From Octopus vulgaris (lineage: Eukaryota), in NCBI GenBank assembly GCA_951406725.2, contig OX597816.1, positions 138,508,001-138,572,000 of the forward strand: 64,000 bases of DNA. Reading direction: 5' to 3'. This document shows, in pieces, positions 4,914 to 61,274 of the stretch. A model generated the notes under the pieces. The model saw nothing but the letters and a program-made list of their open reading frames with translations. It searched no databases and was not told the DNA's origin. A program made the position numbers and the translations under genes. Each line of letters begins with the position of its first letter. Within the stretch, counting starts at the first letter, position 1.

Positions 4914-5082
4914 TGCGTACTTCCATCATATAATAAATTAATAAATAAATAAACCATATGCATATATACATACATATATGTACGTACCTACCTCTACATG
5001 TATATATACATGCATATATGGGTACAGGACACAAAAAACGTCGAACACAATGAGAAACGAAGACATAAACACAAAACCAAAG

Positions 5083-5546
5083 AAATACAAGGAAAATTCC
5101 CCTTATTCGGTCGCCTTCGTTTCATCTACTGCACGTTTCGAAGGTTAAGGCGATACATGACTTTAATGAAACATTCCTTCCCGCGAAAAGCAAATTAAAT
5201 AAAATTTGAGATTTTTTTGCGGAGGGGTAAAAATAGTAACAAAAACAGGACAGTAACGACAGTACAAAATATAAACAGTAAAAGACAGGACAAGGAGAAT
5301 AACAGTAACACAGACAAGAAGGGCTGTTAAGCCGAACGAGATAAGTTATTACGAACGCTATTTTTGAGAACGGCGAAGGAGCAACAGAAAATGCCGTTTA
5401 CACTTGAAGGAAGCCAGGTCAAAAAGATTATTTAATTTGCTTTTCGCGGGAAGGAATGTTTCATTAAAGTCATGTATCGCCTTGACCTTCGAAACGTGGA
5501 GTAGAGGAAACAAAGGCGACTGAAAAAGGGGAATTTTCCGTGTATT
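5083..5546. repeat. Inverted repeat, about 120-bp arms (5083-5203 / 5428-5546), in a TA-adjacent element
   Basis: Arms are near-exact reverse complements, e.g. AAACATTCCTTCCCGCGAAAAGCAAATTAAATAA and TTATTTAATTTGCTTTTCGCGGGAAGGAATGTTT. Confidence 0.9.
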
Positions 5547-8836: not shown

Positions 8837-8934
<98 letters not shown>

Positions 8935-9144
8935 ATGTGACCGCGTGTGTACCGTTGGCGATTTTTTTCCTCCGTCTTCCCTTCTTTGGATCTTTCCTTT
9001 TCCTACGTTTCTGACGAAGAGCTCCGCTCGAAACGTTAAACCCTCCTTCTTCCCTTCTTTCCTGAGCGTTCAATAACACTATACTTGTTCCACGTCCGCG
9101 CGTTGTTGTGTTTTCTCTTTGTGTTTTCATGTTTGGATTAACCC

Positions 9145-9241
<97 letters not shown>
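8837..9241 (+). mobile_element. About 210-bp hammerhead-bearing element (8933-9145) embedded in (GATA)n
   Basis: Pure (GATA)n on both sides; 3' part resembles the element at 31321-31460 (CCTGAGCG...TTCCAC...TTTTCAT). Confidence 0.8.
9007..9041 (+). ncRNA. Minimal type-I hammerhead ribozyme
   Basis: GTTT-CTGACGA-A-GAGC(TCC)GCTC-GAAAC-GTT-AAAC: stem I GTTT/AAAC, stem II GAGC/GCTC, loopless stem III, predicted GUU site. Confidence 0.8.
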
Positions 9242-9889
9242 GGGATTAAGTATAAGAAGACAAGGCATAATCAATATTAGTTAGTATTGCAGATGGAAGG
9301 CATTGAAATATGTGTTTGCAATGTGGTTGTAGGCTGATCCATTAAAGACCTTTTTTATGAATACTACCGGATATGTTAAATAGTCCATTGAATTTATATA
9401 TATATAAATTTAATGGACAATATATGAATATATATATATGTATGTGTGTGTGTGAGAGAGTGTGTGTGAGTGTGTGTATGTAAGATGGACAGCGACGATT
9501 AACGTTTGAGTTCGGAAACATTAGCAGAGATGAGATGAAGGAGAGACGCAATGAACGAGGGCAGTCAAGATAGGAACTGTGTTGTGATTGATAGATGTGG
9601 TAATAGGAATGTGACATAATGTGAATTGAGAAACACGTTGATGTGGTTGGCAAGAGGTAGTTAGAAAGGTAGTGAATGAAAAGTGAAAGAAAGTCTGAAA
9701 GAAGTAGAAGTCTGAATGAAAGAATAAAGGAATAAAAGGATGAGGGGAATCACGGAATCGGAGAAAAAACTTGGCACGGGGACACCTGATGAGATTCAAG
9801 AGAGAGAGAGAGAGAGAGAGAGAGGGGAATGGTTACGAAAAAATAATATAGACACGTTGAAGAGAATGATGAAGATAGTGACGGCGAAT

Positions 9890-11447: not shown

Positions 11448-11509
<62 letters not shown>

Positions 11510-11513
<4 letters not shown>

Positions 11514-11656
11514 CATGTGAATATTACCGTTCGAAACGATCGTATGCATGGATTAAATTCTTTTAAAACTTTTAACACCTTTCTTTCTCCATGTTTAAGT
11601 GTTTGTTGAGTTTCTATAGGATATGTGTCCTATAAGCGCTCATAACACCCTTATAT

Positions 11657-11736
<80 letters not shown>

Positions 11737-11871
11737 ATATAAGGATGTTATGAGCGCTTATAGGACACAACTCAACAAACACTTAAAGATGGAGAAGAAA
11801 AGGTGTTAAAAGATTTAAAAGAATTTAATCCATGCATACGATCGTTTCGAACGGTAATATTCACATGTAAA
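11510..11871. repeat. Tail-to-tail inverted repeat (11510-11654 / 11738-11871) around a (TA)n(GT)n spacer
   Basis: Arms are near-exact reverse complements and both contain GAAACGATCGTA. Confidence 0.92.
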
Positions 11872-11949
11872 TAACATGGTGAAAAAAAAAAAAAGAAATT
11901 AATTTAATTATAATTAAATTAATTGCATACTATAGTTCTCCTCAGAGCG
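11834..11949 (-). ncRNA. Hammerhead-like motif with long stem II insert
   Basis: CTGAGGA-GAAC...(~80 nt, includes an AT palindrome)...GTTC-GAAAC-GATC-GTA; stem I pairing is weak. Confidence 0.55.
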
Positions 11950-12899: not shown

Positions 12900-13218
12900 C
12901 CTTATTTTATCGACACTGAAAGAATGAAGGGCAAAGTCGATTTCGGTGGAATTTGAACTCAGGATATAAAAGTAGACGAAATACCTATTTCTTTACTACC
13001 CACAAGGGGCTAAACACAGAGAGGACAAATAAGGACAGACAAACGGATTAAGTCGATTGCATCGACCCCAGTGCGTAACTGGTACTTAATTTATTGACCC
13101 CGAAAGGATGAAAGGCAAAGTCGACCTTGGCGGAATTTGAACTCAGAATGTAACGGCAGACGAAATACCACTAAGCATTTTGTCAAACGTGCTAACAGTT
13201 CTGCTTGCTCGCCGCCTT
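12900..13218 (-). mobile_element. SINE family M dimer
   Basis: Two cores joined at the AAGAAATAG|GTATTTCGTC junction. Confidence 0.85.
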
Positions 13219-13592
13219 ATTAGGAATTAGCATTAAACAAACATAGAAATCTGAGAGTCATTAATAATTCTTTACATAAGACTTTTAGTAGTTTCTCATT
13301 TCATTTTCTTTTATCGCCAGCAACAAGAATAACCGTAATAATATTCTAAGCTGGAGACTGAACATGTTGACTCAATCAACTACATTCTTAACAATTCCTT
13401 TCATAGCCTTATAAAATGTATTTCAAGATATACAACATATTTAACATACATGATGGTCACGACTGTGATGCCTTTGAGCAGAGGTCTACGCAATGAAGGT
13501 TGTTCTGAGATATAGCGCTTTGTCCGAAATACTGACAATACTGTCAGCTCGCTACCTAAACACTGATGATAACAAAAACATATATGGCAATA

Positions 13593-14420
13593 GAGGCGAC
13601 GAGCTGGCAGAAACGTTAGCACGCCGGGCGAAATGCTCAGCGGTACTTCGTCTGTCGCTACGTTCTGAGTTCAAATTCCGCCGAGGTCGACTTTGCCTTT
13701 CATCCTTTCGGAGTCGATTAAATAAGTACCAGTTACGCACTAGGGTCGATTTAATCGACTTAATCCGTTTGTCTGTCCTTGTTTGTCCCCTCTGTGTGTA
13801 GCCCCTTGTGGGTAGTAAAGAAATAGGTATTTCGTCTGCCGTTACGTTCTGAGCTCAAATTCCACCGAGGTCGACTTTGTCATTCATCCTTTCAGGGTCG
13901 ATAAAATAAGTACCAGTTACGCACTGGGGTCTGTCCTTGTTTGTCCCCTCTGTGTGTAGCCCCTTGTAGGTAGTAAAGAAATAGGTATTTCGTCTGCCGT
14001 TACGTTCTGAGCTCAAATTCTACCGAGGTCGACTTTGTCATTCATCCTTTCAGGGTTGATAAAATAAGTACCAGTTACGCACTGGGGTCGATATAATCGA
14101 CTTAATCCGTTTGTCTGTTCTTGTTTGTCTCCTCTGTGTTTAGCCCCTTGTGGGTAATAAAGAAATAGGTATTTCGTCTGCCATTACATTCTGAGTTCAA
14201 ATTCCGCCGAGATCGATCATGCTTTTCATCCTTTCGAGGTCGATAAATTAATTACCAGTTATGCACTGGGGTCGATGTAATCGACTTAATCCGTTTGTCT
14301 GTCCTTGTTTGCACCCTCTGTGTTTAGCCCCTTGTGGGCAATAAAGAGTACCTAGGTTGATGTAATCGACTTGCCCCTTCCCCAAAAATTTCAGGCTTTG
14401 TGCCTATAGTAGAAAAAAAT
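13593..14420 (+). mobile_element. SINE family M tandem array (one head plus four ~160-185-bp modules)
   Basis: Module GTATTTCGTCTG...GCCCCTTGTGGGTAGTAAAGAAATAG repeated head-to-tail. Confidence 0.92.
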
Positions 14421-17462: not shown

Positions 17463-17473
<11 letters not shown>

Positions 17474-17628
17474 AAAAAGAAGTTTGAAAACGCTACTATA
17501 TAAGATAAATTTTAATTTTCTTAGAAATTTTACGTGTTTCGGTTCTTCTTGAAACATGTGAAATTTCTAAGAAAATTAATATTTATCTTACATAGTGGCG
17601 TATTCAAACTTCTTTTTTATAAATATAT
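17463..17628. repeat. Fold-back hairpin, 78-bp arms and 10-nt loop, between (TA)n tracts
   Basis: 17463-17540 is an imperfect reverse complement of 17551-17628; both arms start at GAAACA. Confidence 0.88.
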
Positions 17629-17652
17629 ACCCACTCGTATACGATCTACACT

Positions 17653-17723
<71 letters not shown>

Positions 17724-17996: not shown

Positions 17997-18510
17997 ACCA
18001 GCTGAATCAACCGCCTTCCGGGCGCTTGATTCAGCTAGTGCATATCTCAACTTCTGTTCGTAGTTTAAAAGTAAAGTGGAACTTACTTTAATTTTCTTAA
18101 AGAATTTCCTTATAAACAACGTTGTCGGGGTACATTCCTTTCATACCCTTATACTCTGAGTCCCAAGCCAATATATGCAAATTGTTCCCTGAACCAAAGC
18201 CAATATATAATCATTGCTCCCAGAACCAAATAGGGCTTTCGTCATCTCAGTCCATTCTGAGTTGGTTGTCATAGTGATGAAGTAGTTTGTCTTTCCAAAC
18301 TCTCTAACCAGAGCAATTCCAGCTTGGAAACACTCCCTGTAAAACCGAGGAGAACCAGTATGTGTTGACGGAAGAATGATTTTAGACCCTACATTATTCA
18401 TATCACCATTTGCAATAGCATCCAGAAGACCCGGGTACTTTTCAGCATTAAGTTGTTTCTGATGATTTCTCAGAAAGTGTAATCGATTTTGCTCTATCTT
18501 TGCATATTGC
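17997..18510 (-). mobile_element. Helitron Rep fragment with probable 3' terminal hairpin
   Basis: AKIEQNRLHFLRNHQKQL...KIILPSTHTGSPRFY...ALVREFGKTNYFITMTTNSEWTE (Helitron Rep); palindrome 17997-18039 ends in CTGG on the minus strand (CTRR). Confidence 0.88.
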
Positions 18511-18679
18511 GCAAAGTTTCCGAAATTTTCATATTTTTTACGTCTGCTATTTCAGAATTCTACCCATGCATGAAACATCAGACGAAAGTACATTCAATAA
18601 CATATTTATACACTCAACGGCGTAAACAGGCATAACAATAGCTCCGACGGCCGACGGCAAGAAAATAGGTACTCTCTTT

Positions 18680-20791: not shown

Positions 20792-21534
20792 CATATACAA
20801 ATACACACATACACACACATATACATTTGTATTTATATACATATATGCATATATTTTCAATTAAACATATATATATGAATATATATATGTGTGCGAGTGT
20901 GTATTTACACACACACATATATATATGCACACACACATAGACACGTATGCGCACGGACGCACACAAGGTTTCTAGAGGGTATGTACAGCTTTGTGTATGT
21001 CAGTTAAGGTAGTTGTTATGGGGTGGCTGTGATAATCTACATAATTAATTGTCAAGTGCAATTTATTAAATTGAATTATTCTTGACAAAGAGTGAATGTC
21101 TCTCAAAACGTCAGCTTTTCAATTTATGCTTCGTGTATTCTTTATATTGTTTTATTATTTTAAAGTTAAAAATATATATAGAATTTAGGAATATTTCTTG
21201 AGCAGCTGATGTAATAATAATACACACATAACATGTACATTGACATATACATAATGGTATATATAAACACACACAATTTTCAAAAACACATGCATATATC
21301 GGTCAGAAGTACACATATAGTTATACGTGAGATATAGACGAAAATTAGTGCAGCTATCAGATTGAAAACGATACCTTGAAATTGATTGACAGAAAAATCA
21401 ATACAAAATCATATTAAAGAGTATTGCACATTGCACAATCTTATATTATTATGTTTTTGTTAATGCTTCGAATTTGTTGGCGGTGGTGTTGCTACCCCTT
21501 TTGTTTCATTGTTTCGACTGTATTTTTCGTTCAT

Positions 21535-30136: not shown

Positions 30137-30270
<134 letters not shown>

Positions 30271-30822
30271 GCCGCTCTCTCACTCTCCCTCTCTCTCTCT
30301 TCATATACACTCACACACAACACATTCAGACACATACATACACACATAAGCATGTATGTATACATTTAATAAAACATATATAAACATAAATAACATTGTG
30401 TATAGCAATCACTGAGTACGTATATGCGTCCGTGAGTGTGCATGAAGGCGTGTGACTTGGTACTTAGGCCGTTACCCTAACGAACATAAGGCTGTGAGTT
30501 GGAGTCCACCACCAGACGGTGCGCTTTGTCTCTAAACAAGGCACAGGATTTTATTCAGCTAAATATGAATGCTAGCTTAGTGCTGGTGCAGCTCTCAATA
30601 ATCCCATCTGTTAGATCTTCATTGTTCCGTTGAGTCAAATTGTGGGAGGGCCTAGTGAATTTCAGTGCTTGCACGGGGGTTAAATACGCACATATAACAA
30701 GAGGGGATAACATGGTACATGCCACTATTCATACCTGTTTATCAGTGGCGGCTGTGTCTGTTGACATTAACGCGCGCACCCAACTCTCTCTTTCTCTTTC
30801 TCATACGCGCGCACAAACGTAC

Positions 30823-30903
<81 letters not shown>

Positions 30904-31253: not shown

Positions 31254-31323
<70 letters not shown>

Positions 31324-31419
31324 CGGGAAGCTTTATGAAAATAAACAAAAGACGAAGGCAGGTGGAATACAAACAAACAATTGTATTAGTATGGCGCTCA
31401 GGAATATAAATAAAACAAG

Positions 31420-31457
31420 TCTTTTACGTTTCGAGCCTACGCTCTTCAACAGAAAGA
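31420..31457 (-). ncRNA. Minimal hammerhead variant (CUGUUGA core)
   Basis: TCTTT-CTGTTGA-A-GAGC(GTAG)GCTC-GAAAC-GTA-AAAGA; host element 3' end abuts (TA)n at 31321. Confidence 0.7.
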
Positions 31458-31554
31458 TACACAGAAAAGAAACACGGAGAGAAACAAGGAGAGATCAAAA
31501 ATGAGAGAGTGCTTGTGTTTGTATTAGTGTTTCAGCCACCACCACCGCTGTATG

Positions 31555-31586
<32 letters not shown>

Positions 31587-32288
31587 TGTATGTATGTATG
31601 TATGTATGTATGTATGTATGTATGTATGCATGTATGTATATGAGCAGAAAACGTAATTACAAATACACACCATAATTTCACATATACATACATACTAATA
31701 GCAGAAATACTCAATATATGATATATAATAGGGAGCGTCTTCTAGAAATAGCCAAGTCTCCCTCAAATTGCACTCCCAATAAAAATCATATTTTGAATAA
31801 TTTAATCACATATGTACTATTCCTAAAAATATGACGGTGTAGACACGGCTGGAACACCTTTGATCAAAAACCTACTAGACAAAAGCTGACCTGAGGTGAA
31901 AAGCAACATCAACTGCTTATTGATAGTGAGAGATATATAAGTAGAGTTTTTATACGCACCTGCCAATGACAGAGTGATTATGTCAAATTGTATGTATGTA
32001 CTTACGCATGCGGGTATGTATGTAAGTATGTATGCATGTATGTATTTTATATGTATTCATCTACGTACGACGTACTATGTATGTATGCATGTATGTACGT
32101 ACGCACATGTGAATGAATTAATGAATGAATGAATGAATGTGTATATGCTTGAGTGTTTGTTTGTAAATATGTGTGTGCTTGTATGTTTGTAAACATGTAT
32201 GTATGCGTTTGTATCTAATTGAGTGTTTGCATGTGTTTCAAGTTTCAGTGTTGTTCGTTAGGGTTCCATTCGACAGCCGTACACTCAC

Positions 32289-40075: not shown

Positions 40076-40174
40076 TATATAATATTAATTCGAGACAAAA
40101 CCACTATTTTGCAAAACAAACAAGGAAAGACTTAATCAATACATAAAAATTTTTTAATATAAAGAAATAAACCG

Positions 40175-40217
40175 CCACTACAATCGTTTCATGTCTTCAA
40201 TGACATTCGTCAGGTGG
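40175..40217 (-). ncRNA. Type-I hammerhead ribozyme, canonical core
   Basis: CCAC-CTGACGA-ATGTC(ATTGAA)GACAT-GAAAC-GATT-GTA-GTGG: all core bases and three stems present. Confidence 0.85.
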
Positions 40218-40665
40218 ATTTTCGATCTAAAATATCAATATATTAAAATATAAGTTTAAAATAATAAAATTATCAATGAAAAATATAAATATATATAATC
40301 TATATATAATCTATATATAATCAATATATAATCTAAAATAAACCCTATAAACAATTGAATATAAAGAAACCTATTATTAAAGTTCTCATATTTAAAGATG
40401 TACAAAAAACAAAAAACAAAAAACAAAAAAAAACAAAAACAAAAAACAAAAAACAAAAAACAAAAAACAAAAAATATATATTTATTTATTTCATCTATAT
40501 ATTTCATTTATATATATATTTATTTATTTCATCACGAACTGTGGCCATGCTGGGGCACCGCATATATATATATAACGTGTTTGTGTGTGTGTTTCCATAT
40601 AAATATGTACACACTGAAAGAGAGAGAGACAATAGATGGGAGGATCCAAGGGAACAAACAGACGG

Positions 40666-43695: not shown

Positions 43696-44560
43696 TCCCA
43701 CGAGTGGATTCCTTAGGTGTTTAAATGTACACTGTATTTTATGAGTAATACATAGCCTTTGGACTAAATTTTTACACGCTAGGCCACTGGAAGTGAGAAT
43801 TTCTATAAATTTCCCATTCCTTTTGATATGATTAAGTATTGTAAGTTCCAGTGGCCTAGCGTGTAAAAATTTTATATTACTCATAAAATAATACTTTTTA
43901 TATTACTCATAAAATACAGTGTACATTTAAACACATAAGGAATCCACTCGTGGGATTCAACACGCTAGAAAGAACAGCTAGGTTCTATAACCACAAAATA
44001 GGGATAGTTTCCTGAACCAATTGGTTTCTGATTTTAGTTTAGCAAATAAATAACATTCGCTTGGTGAAAATCTTCTTCAACAGGTACACCTTAGATTAAA
44101 TATATAAAACACGAGGCAGTCAACTATGTGTCTCTTGTCTATACATCCTAATTTTTTCAAAATCTACTGCGCAGACGCAGCCCCTCGCTGGCAATATAAA
44201 AATGCCAACTTTTAAAATCGAAAATTATCCAAAAAGTTTCACCTAGTGAAGATTTCACCTAGCGAATGTTAAACAAAAATCAGATACTAATTGGTCCAGG
44301 AAACTAGATGGTAAAAAGTTTTTATTTTTTCATTTCGTTCCTGTCGAATTTTATCCCTAAATTTGTGGTTATAGAACCTAGCTGTTCTTTCTAGCATGTT
44401 AAATCCCACGAGTGGATTCCTTATGGGTTTAAATATACACTGTATTTTGTGAGTAATATAAAAAGTATTATTTCATGAGTAATATAAAAAAATTTTACAC
44501 GCTAGGCCACTAGAAGGGAACATTTCTATTAATTTCCATTTCCCTTCGATATGATTAAGT
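43696..44560. repeat. Three alternately oriented copies of one TA-adjacent element (+43696-43838, -43846-44090, +44235-44560)
   Basis: CCCACGAGTGGATTCCTTA...ACACGCTAGGCCACT.GAA occurs on +, - and +. Confidence 0.9.
44011..44084 (-). ncRNA. Hammerhead-like motif, C3U variant
   Basis: CCTG-TTGAAGA-AGATTTT...AAAATCA-GAAAC-CAATTG-GTT-CAGG; palindromic stem III. Confidence 0.6.
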
Positions 44561-49913: not shown

Positions 49914-50763
49914 AGTCAGAAAAAAGAAAGCTAATTCAAGACTACAGACTCAAGCTATTATTGGAAGTGTCAAAATCTGTAAAATTTTCCAGAAGTTTAT
50001 CATTTAAGTATATATAAGCATGTCTAGATATGCAAGTATATGCATGAGAAGACATACATTAAAGAAATCATACAAATATGCACATAAACATATATACATA
50101 TATATATACAATGGAGCCTTGGATCTAGGTTAGAAACCGGCTCTTTCTCTATTAGCAAGAAATCTTGAAATGAAACTGGATGATGGCATACATACATACA
50201 TACATGCATACATTCATTCATACATGCCTGCCTATATGCATACATACATTCATGCATGCATGCCTATATACATACATCCATCCATACATCCATACATACA
50301 TCCATACATACATACATACATACATACATACATACATACATACATACATACATACATACATACATACATACACATTCTATCTGTTGGTTGATTTATTTTG
50401 CTCACTGGTTTTAGCAAAAGGAGAAACCATAGTAAGTGCAAATAAGATGGATGATCATGCACGAAATACCTTTCTTAATTATGCCTCATCAAGCTAAACA
50501 ACGAAAACAGTCATCGAAATAAAAAAAAAAAGAATATGAACTCAATAATCACTATATACTCAGGTTCCACACAGAATTCTGTCGTTCACTTTTGTGATTT
50601 GATGTTTTCATTCTTTTTATTTGTCTGATTTTAATAACGCTCAACGATTTTCATAGAACTAAGATTATTTATTCAATTAAGAATTTCATTTATCACAGAT
50701 ACGATCAAATGATTGTTGTACACATATAAATGGAAATCTTTTGGTTGTGATCACTCGACTTAC

Positions 50764-60690: not shown

Positions 60691-60745
60691 TACATATATA
60701 TAACAAATTAAAAGGGTGGCTTATTAGCAATTAGAACCTAAAGAT

Positions 60746-61220
60746 AAAATTAATAGAGGTCACAAAAGTGATGGAGGGTACTGAGCCACTAAAGCATTAT
60801 ACTTAATGACAGACAAAAGGATGTGAGTCCCGAGCGTACACAGCTGCATCGCGATTTGGAATTTTGGTGCAGACCACCTAAATTCTCATCAGGAGTTTTT
60901 ACCGCCTAGGGTTAAATCAACTACCTTTGTCAATCTTATAAGAAAAGCTGTTGAAATCATTTGCTGATTTTCAAAATGGTAAAAGTGTAAACAACAAATT
61001 AAAAGGGTGGTTTATTAGCAATTAGAACTGCTGATGAGAATTAAGGAGGTCTGCACCACAATTCGAAATCGCGATACGGCTTTACATGCGAGGGACTTAC
61101 CTCCATTTGTCAGTCATTACGTATAGTGCTTTATTTGCTTTAGAGTTAATTTAACTCCTATCTTAGCATAAGTTGTGCTAATCAGTACCATTCACCACTT
61201 TCGTGACCTCTATTAATTTT
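60746..61220. repeat. Head-to-head inverted pair of a hammerhead-bearing element between (TA)n tracts
   Basis: 60746-60892 is a diverged reverse complement of 61031-61220; 37-bp direct duplication at about 60702-60737 and 60993-61028. Confidence 0.85.
61028..61079 (+). ncRNA. Type-I hammerhead ribozyme
   Basis: CTG-CTGATGA-GAATT...AATTC-GAAAT-CGCG-ATA-CGG; palindromic stem III, predicted AUA site; the inverted copy at 60841-60893 has CAAA and ATG instead. Confidence 0.75.
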
Positions 61221-61274
61221 GCTTATATTACACACATATATATATATATATATATACATACATACATATATATA

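Follow-up and report, generated by a model that had tools for sequence, protein, structure and literature searches.

A 211-bp non-coding insert lying between two pure GATA arrays of Octopus vulgaris carries a minimal type I hammerhead motif and is very probably the solo 3′ end (pseudo-LTR) of an EN+ Penelope-like element (PLE), being either a heavily 5′-truncated copy or a short non-autonomous derivative. We limit the family claim to saying that the insert is built like the 3′ end of a PLE and most likely derives from one, leaving out a named family. The stretch of DNA analysed, 64 kb in length and hereafter called the window, is rich in microsatellites (140 TRF rows of tandem repeats). The insert, hereafter the cassette, and its surroundings are laid out as follows.

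8837-8933 (+): left pure GATA array, 97 nt, 100 % pure, (AGAT)24 plus one A possibly derived from the insert
8934-9144 (+): non-coding insert, 211 bp, between the two GATA arrays
8969-8987 (+): 19-nt direct repeat, copy 1, 18/19 identical to copy 2, with which it brackets the ribozyme
9042-9060 (+): 19-nt direct repeat, copy 2, beginning immediately after helix I
9145-9241 (+): right pure GATA array, 97 nt, 100 % pure, T plus (AGAT)24

The earlier note had described a discrete ribozyme cassette of ca. 210 bp inside pure (GATA)n, and this is what we found, with 211 bp between two arrays that are each 100 % pure. The ends of the insert, deduced from this one locus, are placed to within ±1-2 nt, since they merge with the arrays. 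These are in phase if the entry point was GA^TA, and the right one begins 108 nt past the predicted cut site, at a TpA step. Only 0.1 % of the non-repeat positions in the window have GATA runs at 130 nt or less on both sides. Both arrays comprise 24 units, which is not rare: among 91 other pairs of pure tetranucleotide runs, 8 are likewise equal in unit count.

The insert is 40 % T on the ribozyme strand, and its 19-nt direct repeat exceeds chance: 1000 dinucleotide shuffles never reproduced it, and 1000 trinucleotide shuffles did so once. We found a single copy of the insert sequence, with no tandem unit and no partial tandem or inverted copy within it, the last two being optional 5′ features among PLEs. 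A terminal inverted repeat was likewise not found, the sole inverted pair being internal (12 nt at 83 %), and the tRNA gene search called no tRNA-derived SINE head. The three sense frames all contain stops and hold no ORF. The antisense frame is open: a search of representative proteins with it gave one match (E 1.8e-5, 41 % over a K/R-rich stretch of a 1112-aa protein), and the protein route from this frame to related loci scored none of 17 and none of 3 candidates. The 3′ junction (9139-9146) reads TAACCCTA, one reverse-complement TTAGGG unit, and the 7-mer GGATTAA at the 3′ end of the insert (9135-9141) is repeated just beyond the right array (9243-9249).

The ribozyme itself is made up of the following elements.

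9007-9041 (+): type I minimal hammerhead, a descriptor match, with the consensus in Fig. S3 of PMC4209133
9007-9010 with 9038-9041 (+): helix I by sequence, 4 bp, GUUU with AAAC
9011-9017 (+): core CUGACGA
9018 (+): bulged A ahead of helix II
9019-9022 with 9026-9029 (+): helix II, 4 bp, GAGC and GCUC closed by the loop UCC
9030-9033 (+): core GAAA, followed by CG and then by UU at 9036-9037
after 9037 (+): predicted cut site GUU, with a palindromic ACGU and no loop III upstream

Two structural claims made previously are borne out by these coordinates: the core is intact, with both CUGACGA and GAAA present, and stem III lacks a loop, GTT directly following GAAAC. The G10.1-C11.1 pair is G9019-C9029, and GUU is among the active NUH cleavage sites (PMC3138052). 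The strict descriptor matched three times in the window (9011 on the plus, 40213 on the minus and 61031 on the plus strand) and in 0 of 100 block-wise dinucleotide shuffles. Freeing one core base added a match at 31452 on the minus strand, for a total of four; the shuffle mean was then 0.04, with one match in each of 4 of 100 shuffles. A looser half-core scan gave many AT-rich chance matches and was kept out of these counts. Rfam gave 0 matches at the gathering score over the whole window, including all four hammerhead motifs, and 0 matches at E<=10 over 8900-9200; this type of hammerhead is not well covered by Rfam. At 21065-21140 on the plus strand there is probably a decayed minimal hammerhead akin to the 9011 motif.

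The 9007-9041 motif fits the consensus of the minimal hammerheads (min-HHRs) of PLEs given in PMC4209133 at every position. That paper defines min-HHRs by a bulge before helix II, G10.1-C11.1, a palindromic 15.2-16.2 without a loop and a U-rich 5′ flank, and describes them as mostly single motifs, probably from truncated PLEs; by our own count, 15 of the 56 rows of its Fig. S3 end in GAAA-C-G-U-U. PMC8557442 describes PLE hammerheads close to the 3′ end, hidden target duplications, and a bias of Neptune, Naiad, Chlamys and Hydra elements towards microsatellites. The cassette has this layout, 108 nt separating its cut site from the 3′ junction, and its insertion site, at the one locus, is a microsatellite, as expected of an EN+ PLE. 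A PLE origin, which the earlier note did not name, explains all the features of the cassette. According to PMC13282606, 190 families of PLEs occupy 6.83 % of the O. vulgaris genome, so it is no surprise that a 64-kb window contains four remnants.

Of 373 filtered open frames, all but the 73 shortest (45-50 aa) were scanned against Pfam; in these 300 no RT or GIY-YIG remnant was detected and a Helitron fragment alone exceeded the cut-off, so that the scanned frames give no link to an autonomous PLE. The cassette is not an autonomous PLE, and the lack of an ORF is expected of a truncated copy. A second copy of the cassette family was not found in the window by blastn, and a blastn search against phages and plasmids gave no match. 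Two cassette patterns had 0 matches in genome contigs, in a search confined to non-eukaryote collections. Of nine window motifs looked up, besides a GATA-run term, in the supplement of PMC8557442, which by its file list does not include DNA consensi of Neptune, Poseidon and Nematis, none was found. Within a literature search whose scope mostly excluded subscription papers and Repbase reports, we found no octopus family of this kind and no GATA-targeting PLE.

The closest relative of the cassette in the window lies on the opposite strand and is delimited as follows, together with a short sequence common to both.

31255-31322 (no strand): pure (TA)n array, adjoining the 3′ end of the relative, 103 nt past its cut site
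31323-31548 (-): sister-family insert, with an uncertain 5′ boundary at about 31500 to 31548
31420-31457 (-): minimal hammerhead of the relative, helix I of 5 bp, cut site GUA after 31425
9059-9068 (+): 10-mer TTCCTGAGCG, 22 nt past the cassette cut site, in the same register in the relative (21-22 nt)

This relative is the best in-window match of the cassette by blastn (82 % over 34 nt, E 0.003), and its local alignment score with the cassette is 84 versus 56 for the best unrelated window. The 10-mer occurs in just these two places in the window; it was recovered in 36 of 10000 register-matched shuffles and in 44 of 1000 at any register. Helix II is identical in the two motifs, although its loop has 4 nt in the relative, and helix I shows a compensatory change from G-C to C-G, a comparison of two sequences only. 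Outside the ribozyme and the 10-mer the arms align no better than chance (3′, 283 of 2000 shuffles; 5′, 424 of 2000), and the 19-nt repeat of the cassette was not found in the relative. Because the arms do no better than shuffles, the relative represents a distant sister family, and 'subfamily', the term used at first, is too close. Its core is the deviant CUGUUGA, which fails the strict descriptor, and its ribozyme activity appears doubtful because a U at this position occurs in none of the 56 published rows (PMC4209133). The relative had been placed at 31321-31460 next to (TA)n: its 3′ end does adjoin (TA)n at 31322, but the insert stretches past 31460, and on its upstream side it lies near a (CATA)n-class array (31549-31639), not TA.

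The four hammerheads of the window share a layout. A pure array of the TA/GATA class lies downstream of the cut site in all of them, at 108 nt in the cassette, 103 nt in the relative, 107 nt for 40213 (as far as the pure run; impure TA sequence begins about 13 nt closer) and 160 nt for 61031. Such an array is found at 200 nt or less from 12.6 % of non-repeat positions, and the probability of all four by chance is 0.00019. Upstream distances vary (104, 132, 487 and 392 nt). A fixed 3′ end combined with a variable 5′ end is the outcome of target-primed reverse transcription. In none of 12 pairwise comparisons did the arms of the four inserts beat shuffles (best, 283 of 2000), and matches at 50521 and 5261 to the 3′ arm of the cassette were rejected as compositional only.

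Inverted partial copies typical of PLEs occur in two other inserts of the window. The insert at 60700-61235 lies between two (TA)n arrays and contains an inverted pair (60784-60897 and 61026-61139, 82 %), its plus strand carrying the hammerhead at 61031 and its minus strand a decayed copy, a typical PLE inverted structure. At 11508-11873 an inverted pair (96 %) faces into a (TA)n/(TG)n array; a GAAA-CGATCG-UA half core without a CUGANGA box lies 108 nt from the array, and the 3′ end is CCCT and then TA, as in the cassette. A possible PLE end at 5020-5546 comprises an inverted pair (5084-5207 and 5423-5546, 93 %) with GAAACGUG, in which the G is non-cleavable, and a 3′ end with CCC ahead of an AT-rich run. 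The insert at 40086-40230 on the minus strand contains the hammerhead with C3 at 40213, has UGAA and a helix III of 4 bp, and runs at its 3′ end into (TA)n; this motif resembles Hydra-clade rows of File S2 in PMC8557442. Two more pure GATA-class arrays surround 552 bp at 30137-30903, with no hammerhead match inside. The window also contains a Helitron_like_N fragment at 18144-18551 on the minus strand (E 7e-22; best match from Octopus vulgaris, 76 % identity), and, at 12901-14347, an interspersed repeat of 158-342 bp whose copies, both direct and inverted, are clustered and which we take to be probably a SINE. A MITE-like or fold-back insert with 128-nt inverted arms at 95 % is situated at 43870-44489, and a palindrome-like insert of 187 bp within (TA)n at 17469-17655.

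Folding, which used nearest-neighbour energies and ignored tertiary contacts and Mg2+, predicts that the ribozyme strand of the cassette is engaged in an alternative structure.

9005-9011 with 9030-9036 (+): competing hairpin, predicted, 7 bp, sequestering C3 and the GAAAC strand

The GUUU of helix I is complementary both to the AAAC after the cut and to the AAAC within the core GAAAC, and upstream bases lengthen the latter pairing to 7 bp. In the whole cassette this competing pairing reaches a pair probability of 0.67-0.80, helix I having a predicted occupancy of merely 0.02-0.09, and the hairpin is the monomer minimum (-8.9 kcal/mol versus -4.9 for helices I and II); it is no stabler than in shuffles (z -1.06). 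The probability of an open-core fold is 0.0004 in the cassette and 0.011 in the 31452 relative. For two copies of the cassette the cofold minimum is -28.3 kcal/mol and the double hammerhead is at -7.9, about 20 above it, and in an in-silico tandem the probability of an inter-copy helix III is near 0. The comparison motif at 40213, by contrast, has a double hammerhead at -21.8, essentially at its cofold minimum of -22.0. The nearest same-strand hammerhead match to the cassette is 52 kb off and of a different family.

The proposal that the motif would cleave only as a dimer agrees with the published model, in which the monomer of a minimal PLE hammerhead is inactive and the dimer and trimer have low activity (PMC4209133), but it is weakened by the cassette being a solo copy and by the sequestering of its core in both monomer and dimer folds; from these models, it is doubtful whether this sequence would cleave as a dimer. 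In PMC11167929, a PLE hammerhead did not cleave unless the PLE protein was there, and uncleaved RNA was the dominant in vitro insertion substrate of the Anolis PLE. The insert is unbroken across the cut site, and therefore the RNA template was uncleaved or re-ligated. Since helix III would form only between two copies and the predicted hairpin sequesters the core, cleavage probably depends on a second copy together with the PLE protein acting as a chaperone.

From PLE biology, a plausible history of the cassette can be outlined. The RT/GIY-YIG protein of the element would have nicked, at a TpA step, an (AGAT)n tract that was already in place. Reverse transcription would have been primed some 108 nt past the ribozyme cut site and would have halted once about 211 nt had been copied, the GATA repeat masking any target duplication. 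The naked RNA would probably fold into the core-sequestering hairpin, with cleavage reserved for encounters with a partner copy and the chaperoning protein, and the ribozyme in the lone copy would be a passenger.

The GATA context had been read as a hint of subfamily-specific microsatellite targets, a reading that our counts do not uphold: there is one copy per family, and GATA makes up 9-22 % of the available microsatellite target (three measures), so that a TpA- or length-proportional null gives a probability of 0.31-0.62 that GATA receives one or more of the four inserts. The 3′ junctions of the cassette and of the relative both fall on TpA. The likeliest source of the GATA site is the general bias of PLEs towards TA microsatellites; a GATA specificity of the cassette family is possible but not indicated. 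We accordingly consider it unlikely that, within the same PLE origin, the endonuclease of the cassette family is specific to (GATA)n and that of the sister family to (TA)n. This would suit the pure in-phase arrays on both sides, a setting so seldom met at non-repeat positions, two families diverged enough for different proteins, and the family-specific preferences of Chlamys PLEs for (C)n versus (CA)n (PMC8557442). It has to contend with n=1 per family, with the shared TpA junctions and the null expectation, and with File S1 of PMC8557442, where none of the 130 family rows gives a (GATA)n preference (Neptune, Poseidon and Nematis families are omitted there) and all six cephalopod families list (TA)n. 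A fuller version, in which a non-autonomous PLE family with both ends fixed is (GATA)n-specific beside (TA)n sisters and its hammerhead stays hairpin-locked until the PLE protein refolds it, would be slightly less likely again.

Explanations other than an EN+ PLE fare worse. A monomer shed from a non-LTR retrozyme, a tandem hammerhead repeat of 200-400 bp that spreads via circular RNA, is improbable: the 211 bp fall in the retrozyme size range, and dispersed monomers with a proposed origin in PLE pseudo-LTRs have been described (bioRxiv 10.64898/2026.07.22.740005), but there is no tandem unit at the cassette, its motif is of the minimal PLE type whereas retrozymes carry the canonical one (PMC7229834), and the cut site is mid-insert, with a 3′ arm near-constant across families. 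Movement or framing at the DNA level (microsatellite gene conversion, a MITE or Helitron-like transfer), or an assembly artefact of equal arrays, could draw on the exactly 24 units of both flanks; we consider it decidedly improbable, given the equal counts in 8 of 91 other pure tetranucleotide pairs, the lack of a terminal inverted repeat (the one inverted pair being internal) and of a 5′ TC, and the 3′-anchored layout common to four unrelated hammerhead inserts. The telomere unit of molluscs is TTAGGG, and the TAACCCTA junction would fit a fragment of an EN-deficient telomere-type PLE (Athena, Coprina, terminon) whose 3′ end annealed to this repeat, EN-minus PLEs being known to combine such repeats with hammerheads (PMC8557442). 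There is, however, a single unit, noticed post hoc and with its last 2 nt from the GATA array, the 8-mer class occurs at two other places in the window, the relative lacks it, and the target is GATA, not TTAGGG, which makes this origin very improbable indeed. A chance descriptor match in low-complexity DNA, to which the short helices and the silence of Rfam might point, was rejected on the 0/100 shuffle control; its probability is practically negligible in view also of the agreement in features outside the descriptor (bulge, G10.1-C11.1, palindrome, U-rich 5′ flank) and of the compensatory change in helix I of the relative.

The cassette, most likely the 3′ end of an EN+ PLE, is a real, well-formed and ordinary leftover. 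Minimal hammerheads in PLE ends, the dimer model and the microsatellite bias of PLEs have already been published, and solo motifs of this kind have been reported in thousands per genome. A (GATA)n preference, if true, would add to the PLE targets listed so far and offer a test of the proposed zinc-finger targeting. Within the sources searched, a GATA-specific family would then be the first PLE with this target, and the GATA and TA families a natural pair for mapping the microsatellite specificity of the zinc finger in the GIY-YIG linker. If conserved, the off-state hairpin would explain both the poor protein-free cleavage of PLE hammerheads and the inserts that span the cut site.

Several known systems can be compared with the cassette. 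Non-LTR retrozymes (PMC7229834; bioRxiv 10.64898/2026.07.22.740005) are similarly non-coding, about 200-400 bp in length, with one type I hammerhead per unit and a probable dependence on PLEs, but the cassette differs from them in being not tandem, in its minimal rather than canonical hammerhead and in being bracketed by microsatellites (PMC7229834). The Poseidon PAc element of Anolis (PMC11167929) resembles the cassette in its pseudo-LTR hammerhead, insertion of uncleaved RNA and AT-rich nicking; PAc is autonomous, with an ORF start inside helix II, where the cassette has no ATG. With the EN+ PLEs Neptune, Hydra, Naiad and Chlamys (PMC8557442) the cassette shares a pure microsatellite without a discernible target duplication, and its hammerhead is near the 3′ end as in Hydra-1_Obim, where the motif is at 2403 of 2507. 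Its target is (GATA)n, whereas the cephalopod PLE targets listed in that paper are all (TA)n. Hydra hammerheads have a helix III of 3-4 bp, and Naiads have no canonical ones (PMC8557442).

The closest likeness is with the min-HHRs of metazoan PLE pseudo-LTRs described in PMC4209133, whose table has no octopus row. The cassette, for which no linked ORF was found, shares their CUGANGA core, bulge and G10.1-C11.1 pair, the GAAA-C-G-U-H stretch without loop III, the short helix I, the U-rich 5′ flank and the single motif. It departs from them in its 3-nt loop II and a helix II of just 4 bp, and in that the GUUU of helix I can also pair with AAAC of its own core, in a pairing extended to 7 bp. The nearest row in that paper is Neptune from Acropora digitifera, from which the core and helix II differ at one helix base and in the loop, and by sequence the cassette motif appears closer to the Neptune or Poseidon type than to that of Hydra or Naiad.
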